From Bacteroidales bacterium (GTDB taxonomy: Bacteria; Bacteroidota; Bacteroidia; Bacteroidales; JAGOPY01): 64,000 nucleotides of DNA. Under the pieces are notes generated by a model. The model was not told the origin of the DNA, did no database searches, and saw only the letters and a program-made list of their open reading frames with translations. A program made the translations under genes and the position numbers. Below, piece after piece: positions 20,573 through 60,786 of this stretch (position 1 is its first letter; the number at the start of each line of letters is the position of its first letter). The stretch covers positions 601 through 64,600 of the forward strand of contig JAWOHY010000022.1 of the NCBI GenBank assembly GCA_046484945.1. The letters run 5' to 3'.

Positions 20573-20684
20573 TATTGGGTATTGGGCGGAGTCTCCTGTC
20601 TCCTGTCTTCTAACTTCTATCTTCTAACTTCTATCTTCTAACTTCTATCTTCTAACTTCTATCTTCTAACTTCTAACTTCTTTT
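20573..20684. repeat. Composite heptamer tandem array (16 in-register units)
   Basis: Read directly: TATTGGG x2, CGGAGTC, TCCTGTC x2, then TTCTAAC/TTCTATC x10, then TTCTTTT. That is 112 nt = 16 x 7. It begins 12 nt after the pcm stop. Confidence 0.95.
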
Positions 20685-20687
20685 TAC

Positions 20688-20695
20688 TACCTTTG
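20688..20695 (+). promoter_or_regulatory. Candidate -7 box TACCTTTG for the downstream lipoprotein gene
   Basis: Exact TAnnTTTG, 39 nt upstream of the ATG at 20735 and immediately after the heptamer array. Confidence 0.4.
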
Positions 20696-20734
20696 TATCT
20701 TCAAACAAGAACATTAATTTAAAATTTGTCAACA

Positions 20735-21625
20735 ATGAAAAAGACACTGATTTTCGCATTATCGTTACTGGTTTCATCGGCGCTTTTCTTTTCGTCCTGC
20801 ACGGATGATGACGACCCGCTGAATCAACCACCCACCATCAGCTTTATTTCCGGCGCTAATTTTATTTCGGGAGATGCCACTCTGAAAGTGAACGAAAGCT
20901 TCACCGTAAAGGTACTGGCAGAAGCCAACGCTGAATCCGGTTCTAAAATCCAGACGCTGAAGATCAGCCGGGTATATAACCTGCAGGCCTGGGATACTAC
21001 ATTTACGTATAATGACGCAACGTTTACATTTGAAGCGACCTTCACGGCCAATTCTCAAATAGGTATTGAAAGAATTACATTTGAAATTACCGATAAGGCC
21101 GGGCAAAAGGCTTCGATATACCTGGACATTACCACTGAGCCGGATGTCATCCCCATTGAGTATTTCTCCATGAGAATTATGGGATCTTACCTGAGTGTCA
21201 CCGGCAGTTCATTCGCTTCCATCAACGGGAATGTATATACAATGGCAGAGGCCTTTGCCAACCAGGCAATTATCGACCTCCTGTATTGGTGGGGAGCATC
21301 AGCTTTTGCCACAATCGGAGCGCCTGATGATGAAAATGCAAATCTGGTTTATACCGGCCCCAACGGTTTACAGAACTGGACTACCAAGAATGGAACCCGG
21401 TTCAAGACCACTACAGTGACTGCCACTGAATTCGATGCACTTAATGATGGCGCCCTGATTATCGATGCCGCCACCGGATCGGATCAGACACGCATAGGTT
21501 CCCTGACTGTCGGAAATGTGATCGCCTTTATCACGGTAACCGGTAAACACGGCCTGATCAAGGTGGTGAATATCAATGATGGCGCTGCCGGCGATATCAC
21601 CATCGATATAAAGGTGGAACTTTAG
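20735..21625 (+). CDS. Hypothetical lipoprotein
   Basis: The ATG at 20735 gives MKKTLIFALSLLVSSALFFSSC (signal peptide plus lipobox Cys). The ORF-track start at 20726 is a TTG. I recognise no family. Confidence 0.65.
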   Translation: MKKTLIFALSLLVSSALFFSSCTDDDDPLNQPPTISFISGANFISGDATLKVNESFTVKVLAEANAESGSKIQTLKISRVYNLQAWDTTFTYNDATFTFEATFTANSQIGIERITFEITDKAGQKASIYLDITTEPDVIPIEYFSMRIMGSYLSVTGSSFASINGNVYTMAEAFANQAIIDLLYWWGASAFATIGAPDDENANLVYTGPNGLQNWTTKNGTRFKTTTVTATEFDALNDGALIIDAATGSDQTRIGSLTVGNVIAFITVTGKHGLIKVVNINDGAAGDITIDIKVEL

Positions 21626-21664
21626 TATTTTCGTTAATTTTTCGTTAATTACGGTTCTCTACAT

Positions 21665-21712
21665 ATTCATCTCCATCATTTTTGATAATTTTGAAAAATG
21701 ATGGAGATGAAT
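21665..21712. promoter_or_regulatory. Perfect 19-bp inverted repeat enclosing the phhA start codon, with a TAATTTTG box in its loop
   Basis: ATTCATCTCCATCATTTTT (21665-21683) is the exact reverse complement of AAAAATGATGGAGATGAAT (21694-21712). The loop GATAATTTTG contains TAATTTTG (21686-21693). ATG codons at 21698, 21701 and 21707 lie in the 3' arm. Confidence 0.6.
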
Positions 21713-23443
21713 CATATACTGGAAAAGCTTCCCCGGCACCTGATGCAGCTGGTGATCGACCAGCCTTATAACAGCTATACGGCCCAGGATCATGCCGTCT
21801 GGCGGTATGTGATGCGGCAGAATGTCCGCTATCTGAGCAAGGTAGCCCATGGTTCATACGTAGACGGGCTGACAAGGACCGGCATTTCCATTGACAGCAT
21901 TCCCCACATGTACGGAATGAACCGGATCCTGAAGGAGATCGGATGGGCGTCAATAGCGGTAGACGGGTTCATTCCCCCGGCAGCATTCATGGAATTCCAG
22001 GCTTATAATGTCCTGGTCATCGCCGCCGATATCCGCCCGATCGATCAGATTGAATACACCCCGGCGCCTGATATTATTCACGAAGCCGCCGGCCATGCCC
22101 CCATCATCGCCGATCCGGAATATGCGGCATACCTGAAGTTATTCGGGGAAATCGGCTCCAAAGCTTTCTCATCAGCCCGCGATTATGAGATCTATGAAGC
22201 CGTCCGCCACCTTTCCATTTTGAAGGCCGACCCCTACACCTCATCTGAAGCCATTGCAAAAGCAGAAAAGGATCTCGCTGAAGCTGAGGCTATACAGGAA
22301 ACACCTTCCGAAATGTCGCGCATCCGGAACCTGCACTGGTGGACAGTCGAATACGGTCTGATCGGCGACCTGCATAAGCCTAAAATCTATGGTGCAGGCC
22401 TTCTGTCATCCATCGGGGAAAGTTATTCTTCTTTACAGCCCCAGGTAAAAAAATTACCTTACTCCATCGAAGCCGCCAACTATAACTTCGACATTACCAC
22501 CCGGCAGCCCCAGCTGTTCGTGACGCCTGATTTTAAACACCTGACCGATGTATTGCACGAATTCGAGAAAACGATGGCACTGCGGACCGGCGGTATGGAC
22601 GGAGTGATGAAGGCTATTGAATCGGGCTATACCGGAACCTGTGTTTATAGTTCGGGATTGCAGGTTTCCGGAACATTCCAGGAAATGATCGTCCACCGGG
22701 AAGCGCCCGTCTATGTCAAAACGGAAGGGCCATCCCAGCTATGCTTTGAGGGCAGGCAACTGGAAGGCCACGGCAAGGATTACCATAACCATGGTTTCAG
22801 TTCCCCAGTCGGAAAATTAAAAGATATCGCCACTCCCCTGGAAATGCTGACCGACGGTGACCTGGAAAACCTTGGTATGGTCACGGGCAAATACGCGTCG
22901 CTTACATTCGAATCAGGAGTGATTGTCAAAGGAATACTTGATAAGATATGCCGTAAAAAGGGACTTGTCATCCTGATGACCTTCACCGGTTGCACCGTGA
23001 CATTCAGGGACAAAGTCCTGTTCCAGCCCGAATGGGGTACCTATGACATGGCCGTCGGAGAAAAGATCATCTCGGCTTTTTCCGGGCCGGCCGATCCGTT
23101 TGCTTTCGAACTGGAATATCCCGTTCCGAAGGAAAAAACCCACAAGATCGTCCATTCACCCGAGGCAATCCGGCTGCACAACCTTTATCAGGCAGTAAGG
23201 GATATCCGTGAAAATGGAAATGACCGGATGAAATTACATGAAATCTGGCAACAAGTAAGCCGTCAATATCCTGAGGAGTGGCTGTTACCCATGGAAATGC
23301 TGGAAATTGTTGCCGGGAAACTCCAGGATGAATTGCTGCAAAAAGAAATCAGAAAATACCTGGATGAAAAAAAAGTGGCTGATCCGGGTTTAGCGTCCCT
23401 GATTGAAAACGGTTATGCTCTTATCTCCGGGTCAAATGAGTAG
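21698..23443 (+). CDS. phhA: Aromatic amino acid (phenylalanine-4-) hydroxylase, long form with a ~280-aa C-terminal extension
   Basis: Iron-binding motif PDIIHEAAGHAP and ...GAGLLSSIGE... in the N-terminal half. It lies next to the homogentisate-pathway genes. Confidence 0.85.
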   Translation: MMEMNHILEKLPRHLMQLVIDQPYNSYTAQDHAVWRYVMRQNVRYLSKVAHGSYVDGLTRTGISIDSIPHMYGMNRILKEIGWASIAVDGFIPPAAFMEFQAYNVLVIAADIRPIDQIEYTPAPDIIHEAAGHAPIIADPEYAAYLKLFGEIGSKAFSSARDYEIYEAVRHLSILKADPYTSSEAIAKAEKDLAEAEAIQETPSEMSRIRNLHWWTVEYGLIGDLHKPKIYGAGLLSSIGESYSSLQPQVKKLPYSIEAANYNFDITTRQPQLFVTPDFKHLTDVLHEFEKTMALRTGGMDGVMKAIESGYTGTCVYSSGLQVSGTFQEMIVHREAPVYVKTEGPSQLCFEGRQLEGHGKDYHNHGFSSPVGKLKDIATPLEMLTDGDLENLGMVTGKYASLTFESGVIVKGILDKICRKKGLVILMTFTGCTVTFRDKVLFQPEWGTYDMAVGEKIISAFSGPADPFAFELEYPVPKEKTHKIVHSPEAIRLHNLYQAVRDIRENGNDRMKLHEIWQQVSRQYPEEWLLPMEMLEIVAGKLQDELLQKEIRKYLDEKKVADPGLASLIENGYALISGSNE

Positions 23444-24307
23444 GACTTTCAGCGCTTCATAAACTTCTCCCCTGTCAATCAGCTCTTTTGCCAGCGAATG
23501 CAATGCGTGGTGTTGATCGTTGGATTTTTCCAGCAAAGCGATCAGATGCGACTGCTTTGCAGCCCCTTCGATCTCTTGCCGGGAGGGCATCGATGGGAGG
23601 TTTCCCAGTCGCCCCAGGTCATTTCCGGTAAGTATTCTACTCATTCTGACATGTTCCGGCAATGAGTCAACACCGATACCGATTGATGATATCGGTTTTT
23701 CAACCCGGAAGATACCTTCACCGAAGGCTTTGCAATACCAGTCGCGGCCCATTCTTCCGACCAGCCTGATCTGTTCCTGGTCAATCAACCCGTCTTCGGC
23801 CAGTACATCCTCACTGATGTGCATCAACAGCACTTCACAGATCACCAGGTTGGCCGCACCGCCCCCCTGGCCTGTCTCAATGACATCGCGGACTTTGCAT
23901 TCCAGTTGCACCGGTGACTCTTTCACGCGGAAGGGTTTTACTTTTTCAGAATCCAGTTTGGTAAAGCCGGCTTTTTCAAATTCATCCACACCACCGGGAA
24001 ATTCCGTACTGGCCAGACTGGCCTGGTTGACCATTTCGTAAGTCACGACATTGATCACCACCTCAGGCACCGCCTTCACATTTTCATAAGTATGCTTGGT
24101 GGTATTGTCACGTCCCCGTCGGGAGGGCGAGAAAATCAATGTAGTAGGATTTACTCCGAAGACATTAAAGAAACTGAATGGCGAAAGATTGGGTCTCCCT
24201 TCGGCATCCACCGTGCTGGCAAACGCGATGGGGCGCGGGCCTATGCTCCCCAGGAGAAGCTGGTGCATGCGCTGTGAAGAGATATCTGCAGGGAAATAGG
24301 AAAGCAT
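23432..24307 (-). CDS. Flavin reductase-like (FMN-binding split-barrel) protein
   Basis: 291 aa. The N-terminal segment LLLGSIGPRPIAFASTVDAEGRPNLSPFSFFN is typical of the flavin reductase-like domain. Its 3' end overlaps phhA by 12 nt (convergent). Confidence 0.8.
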   Translation of the reverse strand: MLSYFPADISSQRMHQLLLGSIGPRPIAFASTVDAEGRPNLSPFSFFNVFGVNPTTLIFSPSRRGRDNTTKHTYENVKAVPEVVINVVTYEMVNQASLASTEFPGGVDEFEKAGFTKLDSEKVKPFRVKESPVQLECKVRDVIETGQGGGAANLVICEVLLMHISEDVLAEDGLIDQEQIRLVGRMGRDWYCKAFGEGIFRVEKPISSIGIGVDSLPEHVRMSRILTGNDLGRLGNLPSMPSRQEIEGAAKQSHLIALLEKSNDQHHALHSLAKELIDRGEVYEALKVLLI

Positions 24308-24316
24308 GGTGGAGAT

Positions 24317-24357
24317 ATGTTGTATGTATTATGTTGTATGTTGTATGTATTATGTTA
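24317..24357. repeat. Heptamer-periodic array (TTGTATG / TATTATG units)
   Basis: atgTTGTATG TATTATG TTGTATG TTGTATG TATTATG tta, lying between the fahA stop and the flavin reductase start. Confidence 0.85.
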
Positions 24358-24365
24358 TCAGTGAT

Positions 24366-25670
24366 TTAAGATTTAGCGGGTAAAATTGTCGTAATTGCTT
24401 CGCCGAAGCCGATGCGAAGGCCGTTTTTTTCGGCCCAGCCCCGCATGATGACCGTATCGGCGTCGTGCAGGAATTTCCGCTCTGTGCCATCGGGCATGCG
24501 GATGGGTTTGGTTCCTTTCCAGGTAATCTCCAGCATTGACCCGAACGATCCCTCCTCCGGCCCGCTGATCGTCCCGGAGGCATAAATATCACCCGTCCTG
24601 ACATTGCATCCGTTCACCGTATGATGCGCCAGTTGCTGGCACATGTTCCAGTACATGTATTTAAAATTGGTCCGGCAAACGACAAAGCCACCATCTGCAA
24701 GGGTTTCATCAGTCTCCGGCAAACGGCCATCGGCCAACGGTCTTATCGCAACTTCCAGTTGAATATCATAGTTCCTGGCACCTTCAAACTTCAGGTAAGG
24801 GAGTACTTCCGGATCCTGAACAGGCCCCTTCACCCGGAAAGGTTCCAACGCTTCCAGGGTAACGATCCAGGGTGAAATGACCGAGCCAAAATTTTTACTC
24901 AGAAAAGGCCCCAGCGGAACATACTCCCATTTCTGAATATCCCGGGCTGACAAATCATTAAATAACACTAATCCAAAGATATAGTCTTCTGCATTTGAAG
25001 TAGTGATTGAAGTGCCTAAATCGGTATTTCCGCCTACGATGAATCCCATCTCCAGCTCAAAATCAAACTGTTTTGTCGGACCAAAGACAGGCATTGGTTT
25101 GTCATCAGCTTTCGCCTGGCCTTTTGGCCGATGAATGGGGGTTCCCGAGACAACAATTGATGAGGCCCGGCCATGATAGCCAACGGGTATGTGCTTCCAG
25201 TTCGGCAGGAGAGCATTGGCCGGATCGCGGAACATTTTTCCGACATTGGTGGCGTGCTCCTCGCTGGAATAAAAATCGGTGTAATCACCCACAGAAACGG
25301 GCAGGTGCATTTTTACCTCATTGGCAGGATACAGGGCAAGGCCTTGCAGCTCGAGATTTTCTTTGATCACAGGATTATCCGAAGCAAACAACGTCATAAG
25401 CCGTTCCCTGACTCTCCGGGTAACCGGTTTGCCAAGGGAGATGAAATCGTTCAGGACAGGTTTGTGAAAGACACCCAGATCACTGATCTCCAAATCATCA
25501 AAAAAACCATGATCAGCCAGGACCGAAAGGTCGATCACTGTATTGCCGATCCGTGTTGCCGGCCCGGGACTTTTCACCCCGGAACTGAAAATTCCAAACG
25601 GGATATTCTGCAACGGAAAATCACTTCCCGAAGGAACCCTGATCCAGCTATATCTTAAATCATCAACCAT
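24366..25670 (-). CDS. fahA: Fumarylacetoacetase
   Basis: 434 aa. N-terminal FAA domain (FPLQNIPFGIFS) plus a C-terminal FAH fold. The gene is in the tyrosine catabolic cluster. Confidence 0.92.
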   Translation of the reverse strand: MVDDLRYSWIRVPSGSDFPLQNIPFGIFSSGVKSPGPATRIGNTVIDLSVLADHGFFDDLEISDLGVFHKPVLNDFISLGKPVTRRVRERLMTLFASDNPVIKENLELQGLALYPANEVKMHLPVSVGDYTDFYSSEEHATNVGKMFRDPANALLPNWKHIPVGYHGRASSIVVSGTPIHRPKGQAKADDKPMPVFGPTKQFDFELEMGFIVGGNTDLGTSITTSNAEDYIFGLVLFNDLSARDIQKWEYVPLGPFLSKNFGSVISPWIVTLEALEPFRVKGPVQDPEVLPYLKFEGARNYDIQLEVAIRPLADGRLPETDETLADGGFVVCRTNFKYMYWNMCQQLAHHTVNGCNVRTGDIYASGTISGPEEGSFGSMLEITWKGTKPIRMPDGTERKFLHDADTVIMRGWAEKNGLRIGFGEAITTILPAKS

Positions 25671-25673: not shown

Positions 25674-25740
25674 AATTCAACACTCAAAATTCAACATTCA
25701 AAATTCAAAATTCAACATTCAACATTCAACATTCAACATT
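25674..25740. repeat. Heptamer array, [A/C]ATTCAA x9 plus a partial unit
   Basis: AATTCAA CACTCAA AATTCAA CATTCAA AATTCAA AATTCAA CATTCAA x3 CATT. It fills the entire hppD-fahA spacer and abuts the hppD stop codon. Confidence 0.95.
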
Positions 25741-26834
25741 TATAGCGTTCCTCTTCTGGCCTGTTCCCTTTCGATTGATTCAAACAGCGCTTTAAAATTC
25801 CCTTTTCCAAATGATTTCGCCCCTTTGCGCTGGATAATCTCGTAAAATACCGTGGGCCTGTCTTCCACCGGCTTGGTAAAGATCTGCAGCAAATATCCTT
25901 CGTCATCCCTGTCGACCAGGATATTGAGCTCTTTCAGCGGGAGCAGGTCTTCATCGATCTCGCCTACCCTGTCGAGCACATCATCGTAATATGCGTCAGG
26001 AACATAGAGGAACTCCACCCCGCGCCTGCGCAGCTCGCTGACCGTGTGGATGATATTATCGGTGGCCATGGCGACATGCTGTACGCCCGCTCCGCGATAA
26101 TAATCAATATACTCCTCGATCTGGGACTTTTTCTTTCCTTCTGCCGGTTCATTCAACGGGAATTTGATCCGGTCATTACCGTTGGCCATTACTTTCGACA
26201 TCAATGCCGTATATTCGGTGGAGATGTCCTTGTCGTCGAAAGAGATCAGTTGTCTGAATCCCATGACATCGGCATAGAATTTGGCCCACTTGTTCATTTC
26301 ACCCCAACCCACATTACCGACCATGTGATCAACATATTTCAGGCCGATGGGTTCAGTCTTATATGCCGGTTGCCATTTTGTAAAACCAGGAAGGAAGGGG
26401 CCATGGTAGTCCTTGCGTTCAACAAAGATGTGCACTGTATCGCCGTAGGTGTGGATACCGGAACGGACGACCCGTCCATGCTCATCCTCTTCGGTAAATG
26501 GTTGAATATAGGGTTTCGCTCCTCTTTTAACGGTTTCGTTAAAAGCGCTGGTGGCATCATCCACCCATAACGCGACTGCTTTTACCCCGTCGCCGTGCAG
26601 TTTCACATGCTCCCCGATAGGAGAACCGGGGACGAGGGCGGTGGTGAAAACAAACCGGATCTTATCCTGCGCCAGGACATAGGAACTTTTTTCCTTATCG
26701 CCCGTTTCGAGCCCTTTATAGGCCAGGGGCTGAAAACCAAAAGCGGTTTGATAATAGTAAGCCGCCTGCTTGGCATTGCCTACATAAAACTCTACGTAAT
26801 CGGTGCCGTTTATGGGAAGGAAATCGTGGGACAT
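25740..26834 (-). CDS. hppD: 4-hydroxyphenylpyruvate dioxygenase
   Basis: 364 aa. Hallmark C-terminus FYEIIQRKGAKSFGKGNFKALFESIEREQARRG, with two VOC-fold halves. Confidence 0.95.
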   Translation of the reverse strand: MSHDFLPINGTDYVEFYVGNAKQAAYYYQTAFGFQPLAYKGLETGDKEKSSYVLAQDKIRFVFTTALVPGSPIGEHVKLHGDGVKAVALWVDDATSAFNETVKRGAKPYIQPFTEEDEHGRVVRSGIHTYGDTVHIFVERKDYHGPFLPGFTKWQPAYKTEPIGLKYVDHMVGNVGWGEMNKWAKFYADVMGFRQLISFDDKDISTEYTALMSKVMANGNDRIKFPLNEPAEGKKKSQIEEYIDYYRGAGVQHVAMATDNIIHTVSELRRRGVEFLYVPDAYYDDVLDRVGEIDEDLLPLKELNILVDRDDEGYLLQIFTKPVEDRPTVFYEIIQRKGAKSFGKGNFKALFESIEREQARRGTL

Positions 26835-26842: not shown

Positions 26843-26876
26843 AATTTTGAATTTTGAATTTTGAATTTTGAATTTG
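26843..26876. repeat. Heptamer array AATTTTG x4 plus a degenerate tail (inverted relative to 25674-25740)
   Basis: AATTTTG at 26843, 26850, 26857 and 26864, then AATTTGT. It starts 9 nt upstream of the hppD ATG in gene sense. Confidence 0.95.
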
Positions 26877-26905
26877 TTTGGAATTTGGTGCTTGTATTTT
26901 GGGAT

Positions 26906-28066
26906 TTATCCATTTAACCAGCTTTTAAAATAATCGGGATCTTCAATCTCGATTGCCGTGCGTGTGATTTTCAGCGGCCGGAAGGTATCCACCATCACGG
27001 CGAGCTCCCGGGTTTCTTTCTGGCCGAGGCTTTTTTCCACGGTTCCGGGATGCGGGCCATGTGGGATCCCAATCGGGTGCAGGGTAATCTGGCCGCGCTC
27101 CACATGCTTGCGGCTCATGAATTCGCCATCGACATAATACAATACTTCATCCGAGTCGACATTGCTGTGATTGTAAGGAACGGGGATGGCCAGCGGGTGA
27201 TAATCGTACATCCTGGGCACAAAGGCACAGGTGACGAAGTTATTCCCGTCAAAGGTCTGGTGTACGGGAGGCGGCTGGTGGATACGGCCGGTAATCGGTT
27301 CAAAATCGTGGATGGATAAGGCATATGGGTAATGATAGCCGTCCCACCCGATCACATCAAAGGGATGGGAAGCGTAATGATAAGGATACACCAGGTCCTG
27401 CTTCTTCACCATCACCACAAAATCTCCTTTTTCGTCATGGGTTTCCAGTTCCTGTGGTTTGCGGATATCCCTTTCATGGTAAGGGGCATGTTCGAGAAGC
27501 TGCCCGGCATCATTGACATAACGTTTCGGAAACCGGAACGGGCCGAAGGATTCGACAATAAACAGCCGGTTATCCTTTGTCGAAAAGTCGAGTTGGTAAA
27601 TGACTCCCCGGGGAATGATCAGGTGATCACCGTAGCGAAAAGGGATATTTCCGTAAATGGTCCGCAACATTCCTTCACCCTGGTGGACAAAAATCATTTC
27701 ATGGCCATCCGAATTCTTGAAAGAATGATCTCCTCCCCACTGTTCCGGCGCTGCGAGATGGATGTACACGTCGTCATTGACCAGCACCGCTTTCCGGCTC
27801 CGGATATAATCCCGTTCCGGTTTGATCTTAAACCCCATGAAACTTCGATGCTGCATATTCTTTTCCATGGCAATTTCCGGAACAACGGAATGAGGCGTTT
27901 CAATTTCCCTGATCTTTGTAGGCGGATAGGTGTGATAAACCAGGGAATATTCGGCTGAAAAACCTTCCGTTGAGACCAGTTGTTCGGCATAAAGGTTCCC
28001 GTTGGGTTTACGGAACTGGGTATGTCGTTTGGGAGGGATCTCTCCCAGTTTATAATAATGAGGCAT
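26906..28066 (-). CDS. hmgA: Homogentisate 1,2-dioxygenase
   Basis: The ATG at 28066 (MPHYYKLGEIPPKRHTQF...) avoids overlap with the upstream gene. The protein is cupin-type HGD-like throughout (…HPIGIPHGPHPG…). Confidence 0.9.
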   Translation of the reverse strand: MPHYYKLGEIPPKRHTQFRKPNGNLYAEQLVSTEGFSAEYSLVYHTYPPTKIREIETPHSVVPEIAMEKNMQHRSFMGFKIKPERDYIRSRKAVLVNDDVYIHLAAPEQWGGDHSFKNSDGHEMIFVHQGEGMLRTIYGNIPFRYGDHLIIPRGVIYQLDFSTKDNRLFIVESFGPFRFPKRYVNDAGQLLEHAPYHERDIRKPQELETHDEKGDFVVMVKKQDLVYPYHYASHPFDVIGWDGYHYPYALSIHDFEPITGRIHQPPPVHQTFDGNNFVTCAFVPRMYDYHPLAIPVPYNHSNVDSDEVLYYVDGEFMSRKHVERGQITLHPIGIPHGPHPGTVEKSLGQKETRELAVMVDTFRPLKITRTAIEIEDPDYFKSWLNG

Positions 28067-28100
28067 AATAAATATTATTAGTTCGACCCTGGGGACGATT

Positions 28101-29087
28101 TTATTCAATCCCGGCAAAATGTTTCATAAACTGCACCCTTTCATAGGCTGCCGGATTGGCGGCTTCTTTATAACTGAGCCTGCCAATGAAATCACTGGTA
28201 TTTTGGAACTGATGTTTGGCCATCCATTCATCCATTTCCTTCAGCATCACCCCTATTTGCTCAAAGCCTTTTTTATAGAGCACACTGGCTACCTGCACGG
28301 CTTTCGCGCCGGCCAGCATCAGTTTGATCGCGCCATTTCCATTGTGAACCCCGGTTGAGGCGGCTATATCGCAATGAACCTTATCAGACAGCATGGCTAC
28401 CCAGCGCAGGGGCAGGGAGATCTCTTCCGGCGAACTAAAAACATGGGAAGCAGTCACCTCGAGCTTGTCGATATCGATATCCGGGGAAAAGAAACGGTTG
28501 AACAGCACCATTCCTTTGATACCGGTCCAGGAAAGCTGCAATGTCATGTTGGTCAGCGCTGAGAAATAATAACTGATCTTGGCTGCCACCGGTATGCTTA
28601 CCTGTTTTAACACCGCCTGGATGATATCAATATAGATTTGCTCATGGTGTTCTGCTTTTCGTCTCGGATCAGAAGGCAATACGAAAATATTCAACTCCAG
28701 TGCATCGGCGCCCGCATCCTGGATCTTCCGGGCAAAGGATATCCACTCCGTCGCTGATACACAATTGATACTGGCAATGACAGGTATCTTCACTTTCTTT
28801 TTGGCATCCCGGATAAGGTTCAGGTATTTTTCCACGTCATTTTCCTTTGTATAATGACTGATATAATCGAGGGCTTCAGGATAAGTATTCACATTATCGT
28901 CATGCCCCATGGTCCGGTTTATGGCATAATTGATCTGCTCTTCAAACAAAGACTTCAGCACAACGGCCCCCGCGCCATTTTCTTCCAGTTTCACAATATT
29001 CTCGACAGAATTAGTAAGGCCTGAACTCCCTGCAATGATCGGGTTTCGTAATTCCAGGCCCATATAACGGGTGGATAGATCGGACAT
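28101..29087 (-). CDS. Dihydroorotate dehydrogenase-like FMN TIM-barrel protein (PyrD/PreA-like, function unclear)
   Basis: 328 aa. The N-terminus YMGLELRNPIIAGSSGLT is typical of class-1 DHOD-like proteins. Confidence 0.8.
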   Translation of the reverse strand: MSDLSTRYMGLELRNPIIAGSSGLTNSVENIVKLEENGAGAVVLKSLFEEQINYAINRTMGHDDNVNTYPEALDYISHYTKENDVEKYLNLIRDAKKKVKIPVIASINCVSATEWISFARKIQDAGADALELNIFVLPSDPRRKAEHHEQIYIDIIQAVLKQVSIPVAAKISYYFSALTNMTLQLSWTGIKGMVLFNRFFSPDIDIDKLEVTASHVFSSPEEISLPLRWVAMLSDKVHCDIAASTGVHNGNGAIKLMLAGAKAVQVASVLYKKGFEQIGVMLKEMDEWMAKHQFQNTSDFIGRLSYKEAANPAAYERVQFMKHFAGIE

Positions 29088-41511: not shown

Positions 41512-41635
41512 AACATATTATTTTTAAAATTGTTTATCTGTTTGATTCGTTAAAACGGGATATAAACCTCAAATAGTGTGCCTTTCCGGTGTTAAATATT
41601 GTTAAAAGAAAGGGCCTCCATCCCTGTTTTTATAC

Positions 41636-41643
41636 TATTTTTG
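41636..41643 (+). promoter_or_regulatory. Candidate -7 box TATTTTTG upstream of dapF
   Basis: Exact TAnnTTTG, 20 nt upstream of the ATG at 41664. Confidence 0.4.
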
Positions 41644-41663
41644 AAAACTTTACAACATAATAA

Positions 41664-44108: not shown

Positions 44109-45056
44109 ATGGTCAACGGAATAAAACATAGTGTATTGGTTTGGGTAATGGTCCTGTGGCCCTGCCTCTCCTTTTCAATACCGCCTGACACAATCCACCA
44201 TATTGAGAATAAAGAATTGGATCGGCAACCTAATTATAATGCAAGGCTGACCGGCGTATCGGTCACCGCCGGAGCGCTCTATGTTGGGAGCATGGCTGGC
44301 CTTTATCACTTATGGTATGCCGATTATCCCCGGTCTTCCTTTCATTTCTTCAACGATTGCAGTGAATGGATGCTGATGGACAAGGCCGGTCACGTCACCT
44401 CCTCCTACTGGATAGGCAGGATCGGATACGAAAGCCTGCGCTGGAGCGGAGTGGAAAAGAAAAAGGCGGTTTGGTATGGCGGAATGTGGGGACTGGTTTA
44501 TCTTTCCACCGTTGAGATTTTCGACGGGTTCTCGGCCGAATGGGGCTTTTCCGGGTGCGATATGGCCGCCAACGTGATTGGCACCGGCCTGTTCATCGGT
44601 CAGCAACTGCTCTGGGACCAACAGCCGCTCACCATTAAATACTCAGCACACCCTACCAAATATGCCGATTACAGGCCGGATTTGCTCGGAGAAAACTTTG
44701 CCCAGCAATTATTGAAAGACTACAACGGGCAAACCTACTGGCTATCCCTGAACCTGGCCTCGCTTATGTCAAAAAACAACCGTTTCCCGAAATGGCTGAA
44801 TATTTCTTTCGGATACGGCGCCGACGGGATGCTGGGAGCCACCTCCAATCCTCTTGAATACCAGGGAGAACCGTTGCCCTATTTTGAAAGATATTCACAG
44901 TATTACCTCTCCCTCGATATCGACCCGACAAAAATAAAAACCAGTAACGATACCGTAAGGTGGCTGCTGAACATGATCGGGTTCATCAAATTGCCATTTC
45001 CGGCACTGGAGTTTAACAGGGTGGATAAGGTGAGATGGCATTGGGGGTATTTTTGA
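44109..45056 (+). CDS. DUF2279-like membrane/periplasmic protein
   Basis: 315 aa. The segment MDKAGHVTSSYWIGRIGY fits the DK.GH motif of DUF2279 as I recall it. Confidence 0.6.
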   Translation: MVNGIKHSVLVWVMVLWPCLSFSIPPDTIHHIENKELDRQPNYNARLTGVSVTAGALYVGSMAGLYHLWYADYPRSSFHFFNDCSEWMLMDKAGHVTSSYWIGRIGYESLRWSGVEKKKAVWYGGMWGLVYLSTVEIFDGFSAEWGFSGCDMAANVIGTGLFIGQQLLWDQQPLTIKYSAHPTKYADYRPDLLGENFAQQLLKDYNGQTYWLSLNLASLMSKNNRFPKWLNISFGYGADGMLGATSNPLEYQGEPLPYFERYSQYYLSLDIDPTKIKTSNDTVRWLLNMIGFIKLPFPALEFNRVDKVRWHWGYF

Positions 45057-45090
45057 GGAGACAGAAGGCAGGAGACAGAAGTTAGAAGTT
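45056..45090. repeat. Heptamer array AGGAGAC AGAAGGC AGGAGAC AGAAGTT AGAAGTT (reverse complement of words in the 20591-20681 array)
   Basis: Read directly. It starts on the last base of the upstream stop codon and ends 6 nt before the next ATG. Confidence 0.9.
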
Positions 45091-45096
45091 AAAATA

Positions 45097-45780: not shown

Positions 45781-46506
45781 TTATTTTTGCTCCGTATTAT
45801 CCACCCGGGAGACCAGTTTTCCTTCAACGTATTCTTCCCTGACTTCCAGTTCGCCCCGCTCATTCAGGTAAACCCATGAGCCGTGCTTGTTTCCATGAAG
45901 ATACGTCCCCGATACCTCAACACCTCCTTTCAGATGATACACTACGTATAATCCTTCCAGTTGGTCATCCTTATAATTGGCCTTCATTTTTATTTTCCCA
46001 TCAGTAAAATACTGTATCCACGGACCGTTCTTCAGATCATTGGCATAAGTGATCTCTTCCGCCACGCCACCATCAGGGTAGAAAGTCTTCCAGACCCCTT
46101 CCCTGGAATGGCTAATATAATGCTCCTCGGCCGACAGTGACCCGTCCTCCGTGTTATAATACAGCCAGGTACTGTCCTTTTGCTGGTTGACATACTTTCC
46201 CTGAGCCATCAATCGGCCATTGGAATGGAAATTCTTCATATAAGTAACCCTGCCGCTGTCAACCTGGTTCACAATGGCCCTGGTCCTGCCATCGGGAAAA
46301 TAATAAATAAATTCCCCCATGGGTTTGCCATTGGCATATTCCCCGGTAAATTTCAGGTTACCGTCACCGTCATATACCCGCCAGAATCCCTGTCTCCTTC
46401 CCTGCAAATCAACCTTGTTGATATGGGTTTCTATGAATTCCTGGGAAAAGGCCGTCTCTGCCAGCAGGAATATAAATCCACACAAAATCCAGTTTCTCAT
46501 GAACAA
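45781..46506 (-). CDS. MORN-repeat-variant / YwqK-family secreted protein
   Basis: 241 aa with a signal peptide. It has repeated G.W..Y..(N/D)G......Y..G...G units. Confidence 0.75.
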   Translation of the reverse strand: MFMRNWILCGFIFLLAETAFSQEFIETHINKVDLQGRRQGFWRVYDGDGNLKFTGEYANGKPMGEFIYYFPDGRTRAIVNQVDSGRVTYMKNFHSNGRLMAQGKYVNQQKDSTWLYYNTEDGSLSAEEHYISHSREGVWKTFYPDGGVAEEITYANDLKNGPWIQYFTDGKIKMKANYKDDQLEGLYVVYHLKGGVEVSGTYLHGNKHGSWVYLNERGELEVREEYVEGKLVSRVDNTEQK

Positions 46507-51401: not shown

Positions 51402-52142
51402 ATGCGCACTTACGGCATTATTGGCACCCCCCTCTCCCACTCCCTGTCGAAATCCTATTTTGAAAAGAAATTCAGGGAGGAAAACCTGGAAGATTGCCGG
51501 TATGAAAACTACCCGTTACATGATATTTCTGAACTGCCGGGCCTGATTAAGCGTGAATCAACCCTTTGCGGCCTCAATGTTACAGTTCCTTACAAGGAGC
51601 CGGTCCTGCGTTATGTCGACCGCCTGAACCCGCTGGCAGCTGAGATCGGGGCGGTGAACGTGCTGAAGATCAATAGGATGAAAGGCGAAGTAATGGTGGA
51701 AGGCCATAACACTGACATGCCCGCATTCCGGGACACCTTGCAGCCCTTGCTGAAAAGGCATCACCAGCGGGCCCTGGTGCTGGGGGCAGGCGGTGCTTCC
51801 CGTGCCGTTGGCTTTGCCCTCAAAACACTGGGGATCAACTATTCCATTGTATCCAGGTCCCCGAAAGCAAATCAACTCTCCTATTCCATGCTCGACAAAT
51901 CAGTGATCCGGAACCACCCGCTGATCATCAACACCTCGCCCGTTGGCATGTTCCCCGATACAGTAAGTTTCCCGGAAATACCATACGATGCCGTTACCGG
52001 CGATCATTTTTTATACGACCTGGTTTATAATCCGCAGGAAACGGTATTCCTCAGCAAAGGGGCCGCCCGGGGCGCCATGGTAAAGAACGGCCTGGAGATG
52101 CTTTACCGGCAGGCGGAGTTGGGTTGGGAGATGTGGGGTTAG
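51402..52142 (+). CDS. aroE: Shikimate 5-dehydrogenase
   Basis: 246 aa. Motifs GIIGTPLSHSLS, LNVTVPYK and VLGAGGASRAV. Confidence 0.92.
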   Translation: MRTYGIIGTPLSHSLSKSYFEKKFREENLEDCRYENYPLHDISELPGLIKRESTLCGLNVTVPYKEPVLRYVDRLNPLAAEIGAVNVLKINRMKGEVMVEGHNTDMPAFRDTLQPLLKRHHQRALVLGAGGASRAVGFALKTLGINYSIVSRSPKANQLSYSMLDKSVIRNHPLIINTSPVGMFPDTVSFPEIPYDAVTGDHFLYDLVYNPQETVFLSKGAARGAMVKNGLEMLYRQAELGWEMWG

Positions 52143-52170
52143 TTAGGTATTGGGTATTGGGTATTAGGTG
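52143..52170. repeat. Heptamer array TTAGGTA TTGGGTA TTGGGTA TTAGGTG
   Basis: Starts on the base after the aroE stop. It uses the same GGTATTG/TATTGGG word as at 20573-20586. Confidence 0.9.
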
Positions 52171-52173: not shown

Positions 52174-52422
52174 TCAATCTTCTTTTCTTTCGACGACGAC
52201 CGTAAAGTTTGCGGCCAGGGCGGCCAGGGCGCCGATGGCAGCAAACACAGGCGCAATGATGGCGCCGATAAGCCCTACCGTCACCGGTATCTCAAGAAAG
52301 GTTACCCCTTTTTCGTTTTTGATGATGATCCGCCTGATATTCCCTTCACGGATGAGCTCTTTTATTTTCGCCAGCAACTCTTCGCCGGCGACTTTGAATT
52401 CCGATTTGCTTTGCGATTCCAT
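52174..52422 (-). CDS. DUF4342-family small protein
   Basis: 82 aa. The pattern EELLAKIKELIREGNIRRIIIKNEKGVTFLEIPVTVG followed by a hydrophobic Ala/Gly-rich segment matches DUF4342 as I recall it. Confidence 0.7.
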   Translation of the reverse strand: MESQSKSEFKVAGEELLAKIKELIREGNIRRIIIKNEKGVTFLEIPVTVGLIGAIIAPVFAAIGALAALAANFTVVVERKED

Positions 52423-56669: not shown

Positions 56670-56714
56670 TCCCTGGCGAACAAAACCACTTCCGGAAGTG
56701 TTAATTAAAAAGCG

Positions 56715-56722
56715 TATTTTTG
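56715..56722 (+). promoter_or_regulatory. Candidate -7 box TATTTTTG upstream of the E2 gene
   Basis: Exact TAnnTTTG, 49 nt upstream of the ATG at 56772. Confidence 0.4.
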
Positions 56723-56771
56723 CAAGCCGTTCCCATACAATGGGATCAGGCGTCAAGATAAATATACTGTT

Positions 56772-58076: not shown

Positions 58077-58153
58077 GCGTTTCGTGTTTCTTGTTTCGTG
58101 TTTCTTGTTTCTTGTTCCAGGTTAATTCAAAATTCAAAATTCAACATTCAAAA
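58077..58153. repeat. Composite heptamer array, 11 in-register units
   Basis: GCGTTTC GTGTTTC TTGTTTC GTGTTTC TTGTTTC TTGTTCC AGGTTAA TTCAAAA TTCAAAA TTCAACA TTCAAAA. It starts on the base after the E2 stop and ends 8 nt before the next ATG. Confidence 0.95.
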
Positions 58154-58161
58154 TATAATCT

Positions 58162-58965
58162 ATGCAACTCGCTCTCACCCGCCCGCTCGCCGTTTTTGAC
58201 CTGGAGACTACCGGGACCAACGTGGCCACTGACCGTATCGTTGAAATATCGGTGATCAAAGTGATGCCGGACGGGTCGAAAGAAGTGCTGAACCAGCGAA
58301 TTAATCCCGGTATTCCAATACCGAAAGAAGTCACCCTGATACACGGCATTACCGATCTGGACGTGAAAGACAGCCCATCCTTCAATGATTTTGCCCCGAC
58401 GCTGAACGGTTTTCTCGAAAATGCCGATCTATCGGGGTACAACGCGATCAAATTCGATATACCACTGCTGGTGGAGGAGTTCCTTCGGGCAGGGATCGAT
58501 TTTTCCCTGATGGACCGGCACGTGGTGGATGTGCAGAACATTTTCCATAAAATGGAACCCCGGACCCTGAAAGCCGCCTATAAATTTTACTGCCACAAGA
58601 ATCTTGAAATGGCCCACTCGGCTGAAGCGGACGCCATGGCAACCTATGAGGTCCTCCTGGCCCAGCTTGATTTCTACCATGACCAGGATTATACCGATCC
58701 CGATGGTATGGTCAGTAAACCGGTGAAAAATGAGGTGAAGGCACTGAGCGATTTTTCCTATTATACACGCAATGTCGACCTTGTCGGGCATATCGTTTTC
58801 AATGAAAAACAGCAGGAAGTGCTGAACTTCGGCAAATACAAAGGCCGGCCGGTGGAGCAGGTCTTTGCCAAAGAGCCTTCTTATTATGACTGGATGATGA
58901 AAAGCCAGTTTCCCCTTTCGACAAAACGGGTGATACAGGCGATATGGAAGAGAAGCAGGAAATGA
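58162..58965 (+). CDS. DEDDh-type 3'-5' exonuclease (DnaQ/epsilon-like domain protein)
   Basis: 267 aa. The ExoI motif is AVFDLETTG. Also present are ...GYNAIKFDIPLL... and ...HSAEADAMAT (ExoIII H-x4-D). Confidence 0.85.
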   Translation: MQLALTRPLAVFDLETTGTNVATDRIVEISVIKVMPDGSKEVLNQRINPGIPIPKEVTLIHGITDLDVKDSPSFNDFAPTLNGFLENADLSGYNAIKFDIPLLVEEFLRAGIDFSLMDRHVVDVQNIFHKMEPRTLKAAYKFYCHKNLEMAHSAEADAMATYEVLLAQLDFYHDQDYTDPDGMVSKPVKNEVKALSDFSYYTRNVDLVGHIVFNEKQQEVLNFGKYKGRPVEQVFAKEPSYYDWMMKSQFPLSTKRVIQAIWKRSRK

Positions 58966-59007
58966 AATGTTGAATTTTGAATTTTGAATTTTGAATTTTG
59001 AATTTTG
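58966..59007. repeat. Heptamer array AATGTTG + AATTTTG x5 (inverted relative to 58124-58153)
   Basis: Starts on the base after the exonuclease stop and ends 6 nt before the ATG at 59014. Confidence 0.95.
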
Positions 59008-59013
59008 AATGGC

Positions 59014-60630
59014 ATGGTTGATAAATCGTTTTTTCCGGCAATGGATCAGGTTCCGGAAGATTTCCGGTTGAAGCACCGTGTGGTGCAGAAAGAATATCTT
59101 GTCAATGGCCGCCTGGTGGAATGGGGCGGGCCGATGCAGGAGGTTTATTCCCCGGTATGTATCCGGGATGAAAAGGGCCACATCTCGCCGTACCTCATCG
59201 GGGAATACCCGATGCTGACGGCGAAAGAATCGCTGGAGGCACTGGACGCGGCTGTCAGCGCTTACGATCATGGCAGGGGAACATGGCCGACGATGTCTGT
59301 TGAACAAAGGATCGCCCACCTGGAGGATTTCACCTTCCGGATGAATGAGCATCGTGATGAGGCGATCAGCCTGCTGATGTGGGAGATTGGCAAAACGTTT
59401 GCAGATGCTGCCAGGGAATTTGACAGGACTGTCGAATATATCCGCGACACGATCGAAGCCCTCAAGGAACTGGACCGGGTATCTTCCCGGTTTCAGATCC
59501 ACCAGGGCATCATAGGCCAGATCCGCCGGGCGCCGCTGGGTGTGGTGCTTTGCATGGGCCCCTTCAATTATCCGCTCAATGAAACCTTCACCACCCTGAT
59601 CCCCGCCCTGATCATGGGCAATACGGTTATCTTCAAACCTCCAAAGTACGGTGTGTTATTGCACCAGCCCCTGCTCACGGCATTTCGTGACTCCTTCCCG
59701 CCGGGTGTGATCAATACGGTTTACGGTGACGGACCGGAAGTGATCGCCCCACTGATGGAATCGGGGAAAATTGACGTGCTGGCATTTATCGGCACCAGCC
59801 GGGTGGCCGGTATCCTGAAAAAGCAGCATCCAAGCCCGCACCGCCTGCGCAGTGTTCTCGGACTGGAGGCTAAAAATCCTGCCATCGTTCTGCCCGGCGC
59901 CGATCTCGACCTGGCCGTCAACGAATGTATCCTGGGAAGCCTTTCATATAACGGACAACGATGTACTGCGCTTAAAATCATATTCGTCCATGAATCTATA
60001 GCGGAAGAATTCACCCGCAGAATGGCTGAAGGAATATCCTCTCTTAAAAAGGGCATGCCCTGGGATGAGAAAGTACAGATCACCCCTTTGCCAGAAGAAG
60101 GCAAGACAGATTACCTGACCGGACTGGTCAACGATGCTATTTCAAAGGGAGCTCATGTGATGAATGCCGGCGGCGCGGAAAGCCATCATACCTTCTTCTC
60201 CCCTGCCCTGTTGTATCCTGTCAATGAATCGATGAAGGTCTGGACAGAAGAACAATTCGGCCCTGTGGTGCCGGTAGCCCCGTTCAAAGATATCGCAGAA
60301 CCGCTGGAATATGTGACAAACTCCAACTATGGCCAGCAGATCAGTATTTTTGGCAAAGATCCGGACACGATTGCAAAACTCATCGATCCGCTCGTAAACC
60401 AGGTATGCCGCCTGAATATCAACAGCCAGTGCCAGCGCGGTCCGGACACCTTCCCATTCACCGGCAGAAAGGACTCTGCCGAAGGGACCCTTTCAGTCTC
60501 CGACGCCCTGCGAGTCTTCTCCATCCGAAGCCTCGTCGCCGCTAAAAGCACCGACCAGAACAAACAGATCATCACTGACATAGTCAGGGAAAATAAATCG
60601 AATTTCCTTTCGACGGATTTTATATTCTGA
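59014..60630 (+). CDS. NAD(P)-dependent aldehyde dehydrogenase (GapN-like non-phosphorylating type)
   Basis: About 538 aa. ALDH motifs are LGLEAKNP (catalytic Glu region), NGQRCTA (catalytic Cys) and EEQFGPV. I prefer the ATG at 59014 over the TTG at 59005. Confidence 0.88.
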   Translation: MVDKSFFPAMDQVPEDFRLKHRVVQKEYLVNGRLVEWGGPMQEVYSPVCIRDEKGHISPYLIGEYPMLTAKESLEALDAAVSAYDHGRGTWPTMSVEQRIAHLEDFTFRMNEHRDEAISLLMWEIGKTFADAAREFDRTVEYIRDTIEALKELDRVSSRFQIHQGIIGQIRRAPLGVVLCMGPFNYPLNETFTTLIPALIMGNTVIFKPPKYGVLLHQPLLTAFRDSFPPGVINTVYGDGPEVIAPLMESGKIDVLAFIGTSRVAGILKKQHPSPHRLRSVLGLEAKNPAIVLPGADLDLAVNECILGSLSYNGQRCTALKIIFVHESIAEEFTRRMAEGISSLKKGMPWDEKVQITPLPEEGKTDYLTGLVNDAISKGAHVMNAGGAESHHTFFSPALLYPVNESMKVWTEEQFGPVVPVAPFKDIAEPLEYVTNSNYGQQISIFGKDPDTIAKLIDPLVNQVCRLNINSQCQRGPDTFPFTGRKDSAEGTLSVSDALRVFSIRSLVAAKSTDQNKQIITDIVRENKSNFLSTDFIF

Positions 60631-60640
60631 TTTATTTGTT

Positions 60641-60710
60641 GTAATTAATTGTAATTCATTGTAATTCATTGTAATTTGTAGTAATTCATTGTAATTTGTA
60701 GTAATTTCAT
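60641..60710. repeat. Decamer tandem array, GTAATT[CATT/AATT/TGTA/TCAT] x7
   Basis: Seven consecutive 10-bp units, read directly. It begins 10 nt after the ALDH stop. Confidence 0.9.
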
Positions 60711-60723
60711 AGTTTTTATCGTT

Positions 60724-60786
60724 GAACCAAGAACCAAGAACCAAGAACCAAGAACCAAGAACCAAGAACCAAGAACCAAGAACCAA
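60724..60786. repeat. Perfect heptamer array GAACCAA x9
   Basis: Nine identical units (63 nt), ending 5 nt before the ATG at 60792. Confidence 0.97.

Follow-up and report, generated by a model that had tools for sequence, protein, structure and literature searches.

Tandem arrays of 7-nt units fill a series of intergenic spacers in a 64,000-nt stretch of DNA from a Bacteroidales bacterium of the JAGOPY01 lineage (GCA_046484945.1, contig JAWOHY010000022.1, positions 601–64,600); the whole of this stretch is called the window below. Its protein content places the lineage in Bacteroidota, since a type IX secretion system (T9SS) C-terminal sorting domain and two DUF5723 proteins are encoded, and the closest genomes by HPPD are uncultured Bacteroidales or Lentimicrobiaceae-like metagenome-assembled genomes (MAGs) with at most 86% amino-acid identity. 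Three of the arrays (24316, 25674, and 26843) lie in the spacers of a co-directional minus-strand tyrosine catabolism cluster comprising an hmgA-like gene, HPPD, fumarylacetoacetase, and a flavin reductase. Four further heptamer arrays and an array of decamers lie between co-directional plus-strand genes for a 2-oxoacid dehydrogenase E2, an ExoX-like exonuclease, an aldehyde dehydrogenase, and an FAA-hydrolase-family protein. The genes at the array flanks are different, ordinary conserved genes, and the flanks showed no terminal repeats and nothing in common between loci.

Arrays were called with Tandem Repeats Finder (TRF) and by direct reading in 7-nt blocks, and those with at least three copies were counted. 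Both approaches recovered all ten arrays that an earlier note on this DNA, made from the letters alone, had reported: a period-7 array at every heptamer coordinate listed there, plus the decamer array (Table 1). As the chance control, 50 block-wise dinucleotide shuffles of the window were used. They yielded a mean of 0.1 and a maximum of 1 period-7 array, compared with 9–10 in the window, so that the excess survives the shuffled control proposed for it; the shuffles had no preference for period 7 over 5, 6, or 8. All window arrays begin 0–12 nt past a stop codon, and seven of the nine end 3–9 nt ahead of the next start codon, in agreement with the stop-to-start placement described earlier. One gene context needed correction: the array at 52143 is present as reported, but it lies between convergent, not co-directional, genes, with DUF4342 on the minus strand.

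Table 1. Tandem arrays of the window and the genes beside them
Array	Position	Gene context	Called by
Composite heptamer array	20573–20684	Between PCMT gene (stop 20561, +) and gene 20735–21625 (+)	TRF
Heptamer array ATGTTGT/ATGTATT	24316–24357	58-nt spacer between fumarylacetoacetase (24366–25670, −) and flavin reductase (23432–24307, −)	TRF
Heptamer array AATTCAA/CATTCAA, 9.4 copies	25674–25740	From HPPD stop (25740–25742, −) to fumarylacetoacetase start (25670)	TRF
Heptamer array AATTTTG ×4.7	26843–26876	Between hmgA-like gene (26906–28117, −) and HPPD start (26834)	TRF
Short degenerate heptamer array	45056–45091	40-nt spacer between DUF2279 gene (stop 45056) and HAD hydrolase (start 45097)	TRF
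Heptamer array TTAGGTA/TTGGGTA ×4	52143–52170	Convergent: shikimate dehydrogenase-like gene (stop 52142, +) and DUF4342 (52174–52422, −)	TRF
Heptamer array GTGTTTC/TTGTTTC	58077–58116	Directly after 2-oxoacid dehydrogenase E2 stop (58076)	TRF
Heptamer array TTCAAAA ×4.4	58124–58154	Ends 8 nt before ExoX/RNase T-like exonuclease start (58162)	TRF
Heptamer array AATTTTG ×6.4	58966–59010	From exonuclease stop (58965) to aldehyde dehydrogenase start	TRF
Decamer array, TAATTCATTG-type, ~7 copies, 81–88% identity	60634–60713	4 nt after aldehyde dehydrogenase stop (60630)	TRF
Perfect heptamer array GAACCAA ×9	60724–60786	Ends 5 nt before FAA-hydrolase-family gene start (60792)	TRF

The array at 20573 consists of TATTGGG ×2 (20573–20586), GTCTCCT ×2.6, and (TCTTCTA ACTTCTA) ×5.4, the last being a 14-nt higher-order unit with 98% identity; the TRF period-7 call covers 20591–20681 and is preceded by the two TATTGGG copies. 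It is followed at ~20688 by a Bacteroidota-type TAnnTTTG box (TACCTTTG) and then by a hypothetical gene. A 21-nt higher-order unit occurs twice, with 100% identity, in the array at 24316. Repeated slippage or unequal exchange after mutation of a unit would yield such near-identical 14- and 21-nt periods. At 25674 the array occupies the entire 69-nt spacer. The weakest array is that at 45056, with five units (AGGAGAC AGAAGGC AGGAGAC AGAAGTT AGAAGTT) of which two are identical (2.1 perfect AGAAGTT copies). For some arrays the called span deviates by a few nt from that in Table 1: 24316–24356, 25675–25740, 26843–26875, 52146–52169, and 58079–58116. Next to the 52143 array, the last codons of the shikimate dehydrogenase-like gene (52100–52142, GGAGTTGGGTTGGGAGATGTGGGGTTAG) resemble degenerate TTGGGTA copies, and by this resemblance the array may have supplied the C-terminal tail and stop codon of the gene.

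The earlier note had also read the joining of different words as a locked register with preserved phase. Whichever 7-nt frame is chosen, a period-7 array is periodic in it; two arrays that abut will thus always seem to be in register, and the apparent lock comes from dividing the sequence into 7-mers. In the phase test, which compared the fit of the second word in the phase of the first with that of its six other rotations and used pairs with different but comparable words (minimum rotation distance ≤3), 12 of the 21 adjacent pairs were informative, and the genomic phase was the best one 2.5 times compared with 1.7 expected; the test was therefore negative. The in-phase variants within one array (TTCTAAC/TTCTATC and AATTCAA/CATTCAA) are simply mutated units that were re-amplified.

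Copy number differs between near-identical genomes. For this comparison, three stretches of two contigs from Joint Genome Institute (JGI) metagenome 3300076001, located by exact-protein look-ups, were aligned to the window over 41.7 kb at 99.1–99.9% identity; a search of the JGI metagenome collection for strain-level variation had given a best match only 80–81% identical. The conspecific contigs carry arrays at the same positions, so the sites are not an assembly artefact. Five indels were present in the aligned sequence, and three of them were whole-unit changes inside heptamer arrays: the GTTTCTT array (58084) was 7 nt longer in the conspecific contig, a gain of one unit, the AATTTTG array (58970) was 7 nt shorter, a loss of one unit, and the GAACCAA array (60723) was 35 nt longer, having grown by five units from 9 to 14 copies. 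The copy-number polymorphism that had been proposed as a check is thus seen between assemblies. Since the compared arrays amount to 541 bp, finding three of five indels within them is improbable by chance (binomial p = 2e-5). The remaining seven compared arrays were identical; the decamer array is unchanged in the conspecific contig, and so is the 20573 array in contig L163. The fourth indel was a 6-nt insertion (TCCGCC) with two substitutions at 26881–26884, beside the 26843 array and within a TTTGGAATTTG ×2 duplication. The fifth was a 2-nt indel (AG) at 46433, near the 5′ end of a MORN-repeat gene (45781–46506, −), which shifts the annotated start.

To place the window among its relatives, 80 loci around HPPD homologues from species-representative genomes and 80 loci around exonuclease homologues from metagenomes were collected. 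With the window, this set comprises 2.39 Mb from about 160 Bacteroidota loci (labelled with L-numbers); genes in them were called by a crude greedy open reading frame (ORF) procedure, and distances to start codons are therefore approximate. TRF found 143 arrays of period 7, 50 of period 8, 36 of period 6, 25 of period 9, and 20 of period 14. As many as 113 of the 143 period-7 arrays fell in the ~10% of DNA outside ORF calls, whereas period-6 arrays were mostly coding (29 of 36). Repeats whose unit length is not divisible by three thus lie mainly outside coding sequence. Period-8 arrays were the second commonest intergenic class, with 44 in spacers. Array-rich, Bacteroidales-like MAGs carried 6–11 arrays in 21 kb (L003, L012, L017, L020, and L031), so the family is not confined to the window, while other MAGs at equal distance from the window had no arrays; L002, L005, L018, and L024 were among the array-poor relatives. 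Loci of Aquimarina, Christiangramia, and other Flavobacteriales had essentially none. In five array-poor genomes, namely two Aquimarina, a Gramella, a Bacteroidia MAG, and a Sphingobacteriaceae MAG (L026, L029, L054, L055, and L062, at ~10625–10650), AATGAGT ×3.4–3.7 occurs at the same position inside the HPPD coding sequence. This is presumably a conserved peptide segment, not a repeat array.

Array density differed between spacer types. Per kb of spacer there were 0.71 arrays where the flanking genes are co-directional, 0.55 where they converge, and 0.18 where they diverge, and in the array-rich loci 28% of co-directional but 9% of divergent spacers had an array (Fisher p = 0.003); promoter-only, divergent spacers are poorer in arrays by a factor of 4–5. 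In the window itself, gene orientation flips from minus (16–41.5 kb) to plus (41.7–63 kb) at an array-free 152-nt divergent spacer (41512–41663). The enrichment at gene ends expected in the earlier note extends to the related loci: in 84 co-directional array spacers the median stop-to-array distance was 4 nt, with at most 5 nt in 45 of them, whereas the next start lay a median of 32 nt beyond the array. The array was nearer the stop than the start codon in 56 of 81 spacers. Spacers with an array had a median length of 105 nt, compared with 69 nt for those without, and a remainder of 61 nt outside the array. The spacers are thus ordinary once the array is subtracted, indicating that arrays are additions and not replacements.

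No asymmetry relative to transcription was detected. GC skew was positive in 48 and negative in 52 arrays, AT skew was split 52 to 49, stop triplets occurred on the sense strand of 70 arrays and the antisense strand of 69, and neither purines nor ATG showed a bias; an RNA-level function was rejected on these grounds. The base composition of the arrays equalled that of ordinary spacers, with a mean GC of 33%. Predicted RNA folding was weaker in arrays than in ordinary spacers (−0.063 vs −0.13 kcal/mol per nt), with minimum free energies of 0 to −7.7 kcal/mol for the window arrays, but the folding energy did not differ from that of the arrays' own shuffles (mean z −0.3), and a selected lack of structure was likewise discarded. 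An Rfam scan of the window gave only two tRNAs and no match to an array; these tRNA genes, at 9111–9184 (−) and 12546–12627 (+), flank the DUF5723 gene pair. Between 44 and 62 kb, there were 27 terminator-like sites compared with 20.8 in shuffles and 29 sigma-70 promoter-like sites compared with 20.9, counts that differ little from the shuffles. None of the terminator-like hairpins lay in an array-bearing spacer, and only three promoter-like matches fell inside a spacer, all of them weak, on the minus strand, and in the decamer array. Array-free spacers had no lag-7 autocorrelation, that is, no sign of decayed arrays. This anatomy argues against a strand-specific RNA signal and fits a process at the DNA level that acts where constraint is lowest.

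At least one array site is kept across species although its word has changed. In ten species, a heptamer array opens the spacer downstream of HPPD, at +1 from the stop codon, and the HPPD-to-fumarylacetoacetase array is kept, with related words, in 10 of 24 syntenic relatives. The words there are AATGTTG in the window and L003, AATATCG/AATATTG/AATGTCG in L017, L027, L031, and L034, and ATTTACG in L004 and L019; one orthologous array therefore survives the turnover of its word. On the other side of HPPD, upstream of the gene, (TTCAAAA)n in the window corresponds to (TTTTCAAA)n with period 8 in L017, so period-8 arrays can take the place of period-7 arrays at orthologous sites; AATGCAGG(C) arrays of period 8–9 are found at this position in L017, L027, L031, and L034. 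Persistence overall was modest, with arrays in 16% of spacers orthologous to window array spacers compared with ~8% for array-free ones, and this effect was driven by the HPPD-to-fumarylacetoacetase spacer. The sequences compared give a picture of long-lived array sites with apparently concerted word turnover, beside frequent gain and loss elsewhere. Such turnover can be likened to the heptamer repeats of Xanthomonas, which are found at the same genes with differing length and sequence (Rehm et al. 2015, PMC4692102). At one HPPD locus (L012), a 471-nt spacer downstream of the gene (11096–11566) consists almost entirely of alternating short-repeat blocks (TTGCGGA, GAGACAAGGG-type, AATATCC, TTCTGAC, and TTTACTT), and the order of the blocks itself repeats, giving a higher-order satellite structure.

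The words are shared between distant arrays, as the earlier note had observed. Words were grouped into necklace classes, in which rotations and the reverse complement are merged, and two random intergenic 7-mers belong to the same class with a probability of 0.0025. TATTGGG/GGTATTG is common to 20573 and 52143 (52146), whose arrays have the same word class, and the GTCTCCT/AACTTCT words of 20591–20681 are the reverse complements of those at 45056. The TTCAAAA words of 25674 and 58126 match TTTTGAA at 26843 and 58973, so that the AAAATTC class occurs at 25675 (with a CATTCAA variant), 26843, 58124, and 58966; the 26843 word is the inverted form of the 25674 word, and the 58966 word that of the 58124 word. 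Within loci, 14 of 225 array pairs were of the same class compared with 0.56 expected (~25-fold), and nine of these pairs were more than 300 nt apart, which confirms sharing beyond chance. Between loci, the figure was 66 of 8686 pairs compared with 21.5 expected. A few words were found in several species: six MAGs have the AAATCGT class and four have AATATTC, and AACTTCT is common to the window and L037. In the latter, a different species (CAZQIV010000043.1), the contig ends inside (TCTAACT) ×10.7 at 1–75, just upstream of HPPD, and the word and TRF copy number are the same as those of the window at 20607–20681; heptamer arrays appear to break short-read assemblies. The vocabulary is diverse, with 72 word classes among 109 arrays. 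A TTGAA/TTCAA core was present in 18 of 130 words, 4.7 times the expectation, and a universal core motif was rejected, since TTGAA as the best candidate covers only 14% of words.

Neighbouring spacers tend to share words in either orientation. Among 681 genes, the two spacers flanking one gene matched with a local score of at least 16 in seven cases in direct and eight in inverted orientation, compared with 0.3% and 0.07% in the between-genome null. In the window, the ExoX-like exonuclease (58162–58965) and HPPD (25740–26834) each lie between inverted copies of one word, with (UUCAAAA)n upstream and (UUUUGAA)n-type repeats downstream in mRNA sense. Inverted bracketing with other words was found at the exonuclease orthologues L085 (AAAACTC/GAGTGTT) and L155 (CACTTAA/GTTAAGA) and at FAH in L012 (TTTACTT/AAGTAAA). 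Complementary flanking words occurred in 6 of 25 doubly flanked genes compared with 1.1 expected (between-genome null, p = 6e-4). A long-range stem or inverton was dropped as the main explanation, because direct similarity was equally enriched (7 vs 8 of 681) and the exonuclease flanks are in direct orientation in L083, L084, and L086, close relatives of the window. Separately, complementary heptamer array pairs only 8–50 nt apart were observed at L020 7343–7398, L157 11444–11507, L103 2324–2426, L149 646–764, and L150 2883–2958, an example being GATGCAG... followed by ...ATCCTGC. By their sequence these pairs would fold into long hairpins made entirely of repeat and look like strand-switch products, and they resemble the hairpin-forming short tandemly repeated repetitive (STRR) sequences between hupS and hupL in cyanobacteria.

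Taken together, the arrays are probably hypermutable heptanucleotide simple-sequence repeats that are made by slippage and tolerated in spacers needing no Shine-Dalgarno site. A short duplication would arise in non-coding DNA and then grow or shrink by whole units, of 7 nt or of 14 or 21 nt, through slipped-strand mispairing in replication or unequal exchange. Mismatch repair is good on loops of 1–3 nt and poor on longer ones (Huang & Mrázek 2014, PMC4060949), so loops of ~7 nt would largely evade it, and ~7 nt would be the favoured step according to the literature: as cited in PMC4679880 and PMC4692102, Mrázek et al. 2007 proposed that a length of ~7 nt corresponds to the stretch of DNA within the polymerase, favouring slippage. 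As 7 is not divisible by 3, selection would bar arrays from coding sequence; it would also bar them from promoter regions, so that they would accumulate, nearly neutral, where constraint on the DNA is lowest, from the stop codon on in co-directional and convergent spacers. Bacteroidia are reported not to use Shine-Dalgarno sequences (Baez 2019 and later work), and an array could therefore run almost to the next start codon. Within an array, units would homogenise and drift together, which is why orthologous spacers would keep the array while its word changes.

Several observations weigh against this explanation. The distribution is patchy, with six arrays in L003 and one in L002, both in 21 kb and equally distant from the window, which implies a lineage-specific factor. 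The evidence for polymorphism is thin, as it comes from two short-read metagenome assemblies and not from reads. If the arrays were unstable and truly neutral, they ought to vanish, yet the HPPD-downstream array is kept in the 10 of 24 syntenic relatives at 75–86% protein identity. The recurrence of words is real, and local slippage alone is insufficient to explain it; nor does local slippage predict that neighbouring spacers share words in either orientation. Copying between arrays, seeding bias, or selection on words must contribute. The preference for seven, the recurring genome-specific words, the patchy lineages, and the persistent sites are genuine residual puzzles, which are general to heptamer repeats and long-standing.

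An unlikely alternative is that the arrays are selected, tunable intercistronic linkers of polycistronic mRNAs, which give the downstream gene an unstructured leader RNA free of a Shine-Dalgarno site; the number of units would adjust the spacing and thereby the expression ratio of the neighbouring genes, as an evolutionary tuning knob. The seven window arrays that end just before a start codon would form the translation initiation region, co-transcription is likely across the array spacers without terminator-like hairpins in the 44–62 kb region, and the predicted structure of the arrays is weaker than that of ordinary spacers. In Bacteroidia, it is reportedly the structure of the mRNA and the adenines upstream that tune initiation, and not Shine-Dalgarno sites (Baez 2019 and later work), and the copy-number differences between conspecifics and the one position kept across species would suit this role. 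However, an RNA-level role predicts a sense-strand bias in A content, purines, or skew, which is missing, and the folding energy equals that of composition-matched shuffles. In the larger set, moreover, arrays hug the stop and not the start, they also occur in convergent spacers with no downstream cistron, and one word is in sense orientation at 58966 and in antisense at 26843.

It is rather unlikely that a dedicated copying process spreads the words, which are then amplified locally. Arrays could exchange sequence by ectopic gene conversion or template switching, or copies could be synthesised from a template by an enzyme such as a reverse transcriptase or one resembling a primase. This corresponds to the active generating mechanism of the earlier note, which it preferred to slippage. 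In its favour are the composite GTCTCCT+AACTTCT array at 20.6 kb with its complements inverted at 45.06 kb, the word sharing across single genes far above the between-genome null in both orientations, the closely spaced inverted arrays that look like strand-switch products, and the patchy lineages. On the other hand, no enzyme or element is associated with the arrays, the flanks are ordinary conserved genes that lack terminal repeats or shared ends, only in-place unit changes were observed, and the absence of a lag-7 signal in array-free spacers gives no sign of widespread seeding. The conspecific changes are all whole-unit, as slippage predicts, and there was no strand, composition, or structure signal; the claim of an active mechanism in place of slippage is thus not borne out, although simple slippage does not account for the recurring words. 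Just as doubtful is a maintained system that would copy a limited heptamer vocabulary, specific to the genome, from spacer to spacer in direct or inverted orientation, with arrays kept at particular gene boundaries. The complementary arrays that bracket the exonuclease and HPPD in the window, the exonuclease orthologues in L085 and L155, and FAH in L012 would be its examples, and arrays so maintained could act as recombination substrates, long-range RNA pairing partners, or protein-binding platforms in a 7-nt register. If true, this would give a first functional handle on the 35-year-old STRR/heptamer puzzle in a phylum without Shine-Dalgarno sites.

A binding role is very unlikely. According to it, the arrays are platforms on which a protein recognises nucleic acid in steps of 7 nt. 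On RNA or single-stranded DNA this could be an OB-fold protein of the cold-shock or S1 type, and on duplex DNA a nucleoid-associated protein; selection for binding would explain the shared vocabulary. The ~25-fold recurrence of words within genomes and partly across species, as well as the enriched TTGAA/TTCAA core, would agree with this, and S1, Csp, or CsrA binding was proposed for TAACTGA repeats by MacGregor 2015, who notes that CspB binds one heptamer per monomer. But the many word classes and the lack of a universal motif speak against it, the random orientation relative to transcription argues against RNA binding, and the composition of arrays is identical to that of background spacers. 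Finally, assembly or sequencing artefacts or chance low-complexity sequence, which the short-read metagenome source and contigs that sometimes end in arrays (L037, (TCTAACT)n) might suggest, are refuted by identical sites in two independent assemblies, by orthologous arrays in dozens of MAGs and contigs from other studies, and by the 0.1 arrays per window in shuffles.

Compared with known systems, the arrays are distinct from several classes. The contiguous 7-nt units are unlike clustered regularly interspaced short palindromic repeats (CRISPR), which have 23–50 nt repeats and unique spacers. Folding energies equal to those of shuffles, different flanks, and the lack of an Rfam match separate the arrays from repetitive extragenic palindromic (REP) sequences, bacterial interspersed mosaic elements (BIMEs), and minisatellites borne by miniature inverted-repeat transposable elements (MITEs). 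The earlier statement that the arrays are not CRISPR, not REP-type hairpins, and not coding was therefore correct. Contingency (phase-variation) loci of host-adapted pathogens have units of 1–5 nt (rarely 7) and act as on/off switches of surface or restriction genes, with the repeat located within the ORF or between elements of the promoter. The hypermutable copy number through slippage is a common property, but the present arrays follow stop codons between housekeeping catabolic genes, where they alter neither reading frame nor promoter spacing, and they are depleted in the divergent spacers, which contain promoters. The GGGAATC/GGGGAYT repeats of Xanthomonas and Nostoc (Rehm et al. 2015, PMC4692102) are likewise intergenic, at the same genes, and variable in length and sequence; they consist of one dominant G-rich word capable of forming a G-quadruplex, whereas here many words occur at 33% GC. 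A G-run of at least three per unit is missing, as GGG is present only in TATTGGG/TTGGGTA, in two short arrays.

The comparison with cyanobacterial STRRs was the one drawn in the earlier note, and a dispersed intergenic heptamer family in a Bacteroidota-type genome, comparable to STRRs, is indeed what was found. As in Calothrix, Nostoc, and Anabaena, tandem 7-bp units with a limited, reused vocabulary occur in both orientations at many intergenic loci, including operon spacers. The classical words, reportedly given by Mazel and colleagues in 1990, are said to be CCCCAGT (STRR1), TTGGTCA (STRR2), and CAACAGT (STRR3), and these classes were absent among the 134 intergenic arrays of the window and related loci. 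The host is not a cyanobacterium, as judged by T9SS, DUF5723, and Bacteroidales/Lentimicrobiaceae relatives; the words are AT-rich, and the window arrays are without hairpins, although some inverted pairs in relatives would form them. The function of the cyanobacterial 7-bp repeats, found for example between hupS and hupL, is unknown (PMC2670836, PMC4692102).

The claim that no such system had been described in Bacteroidota does not hold, because MacGregor 2015 (PMC4679880) reported TAACTGA and other intergenic heptamer direct repeats in five Bacteroidetes, with multi-word assemblages in Gramella forsetii, Aequorivita sublithincola, and Elizabethkingia anophelis; Flexibacter litoralis was also among them, and such heptamer direct repeats are known from Beggiatoaceae and cyanobacteria as well. 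In that work, the spacers between the same genes were shorter and repeat-free in close relatives, and contigs broke in the repeats (Elizabethkingia). The present arrays are similar as intergenic assemblages of several heptamer arrays in Bacteroidetes. They do not belong to the TAACTGA system: this class was absent from the window and all 160 related loci, and the repeats of BOGUAY (Beggiatoaceae) lie in forward orientation a few nt upstream of start codons, whereas the arrays here abut stops, being nearer the stop in the 56 of 81 spacers noted above, and have no orientation preference.

The arrays are thus a known kind of repeat, heptanucleotide simple-sequence repeats, which had already been noted in Bacteroidetes. 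Heptanucleotides were described by Mrázek et al. 2007 as the most abundant class of long simple-sequence repeats (LSSRs) in most prokaryotic genomes (as cited in PMC4679880 and PMC4692102). The window shares with this class head-to-tail units in the 5–11 nt range beyond chance, non-coding location, dominance of heptamers, sporadic phylogeny, unit variation compatible with slippage, and whole-unit copy-number variation between close strains, here between assemblies. The LSSR surveys, as far as summarised in those papers, highlighted Burkholderia, Xanthomonas, actinobacteria, cyanobacteria, and some archaea, and not this Bacteroidales lineage, in which an 8-nt shoulder stands beside the 7-nt peak and many words occur in one genome. 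What is new is a well-resolved heptamer-array case from an uncultured Bacteroidales lineage. Cyanobacteria make little use of Shine-Dalgarno sites, and heptamer arrays in both Bacteroidia and cyanobacteria suggest relaxed constraint just upstream of start codons as the reason for the phylogenetic pattern. In practice the arrays appear to break short-read assemblies, and they could serve as strain markers. Why seven-base tandem repeats accumulate in bacteria, and whether they are functional, has been asked since STRRs were described; to this question, the present case adds the constraints that arrays are pinned at stop codons, rare in promoter-only spacers, blind to the direction of transcription, changed by whole units, and able to persist at a site as the word changes.

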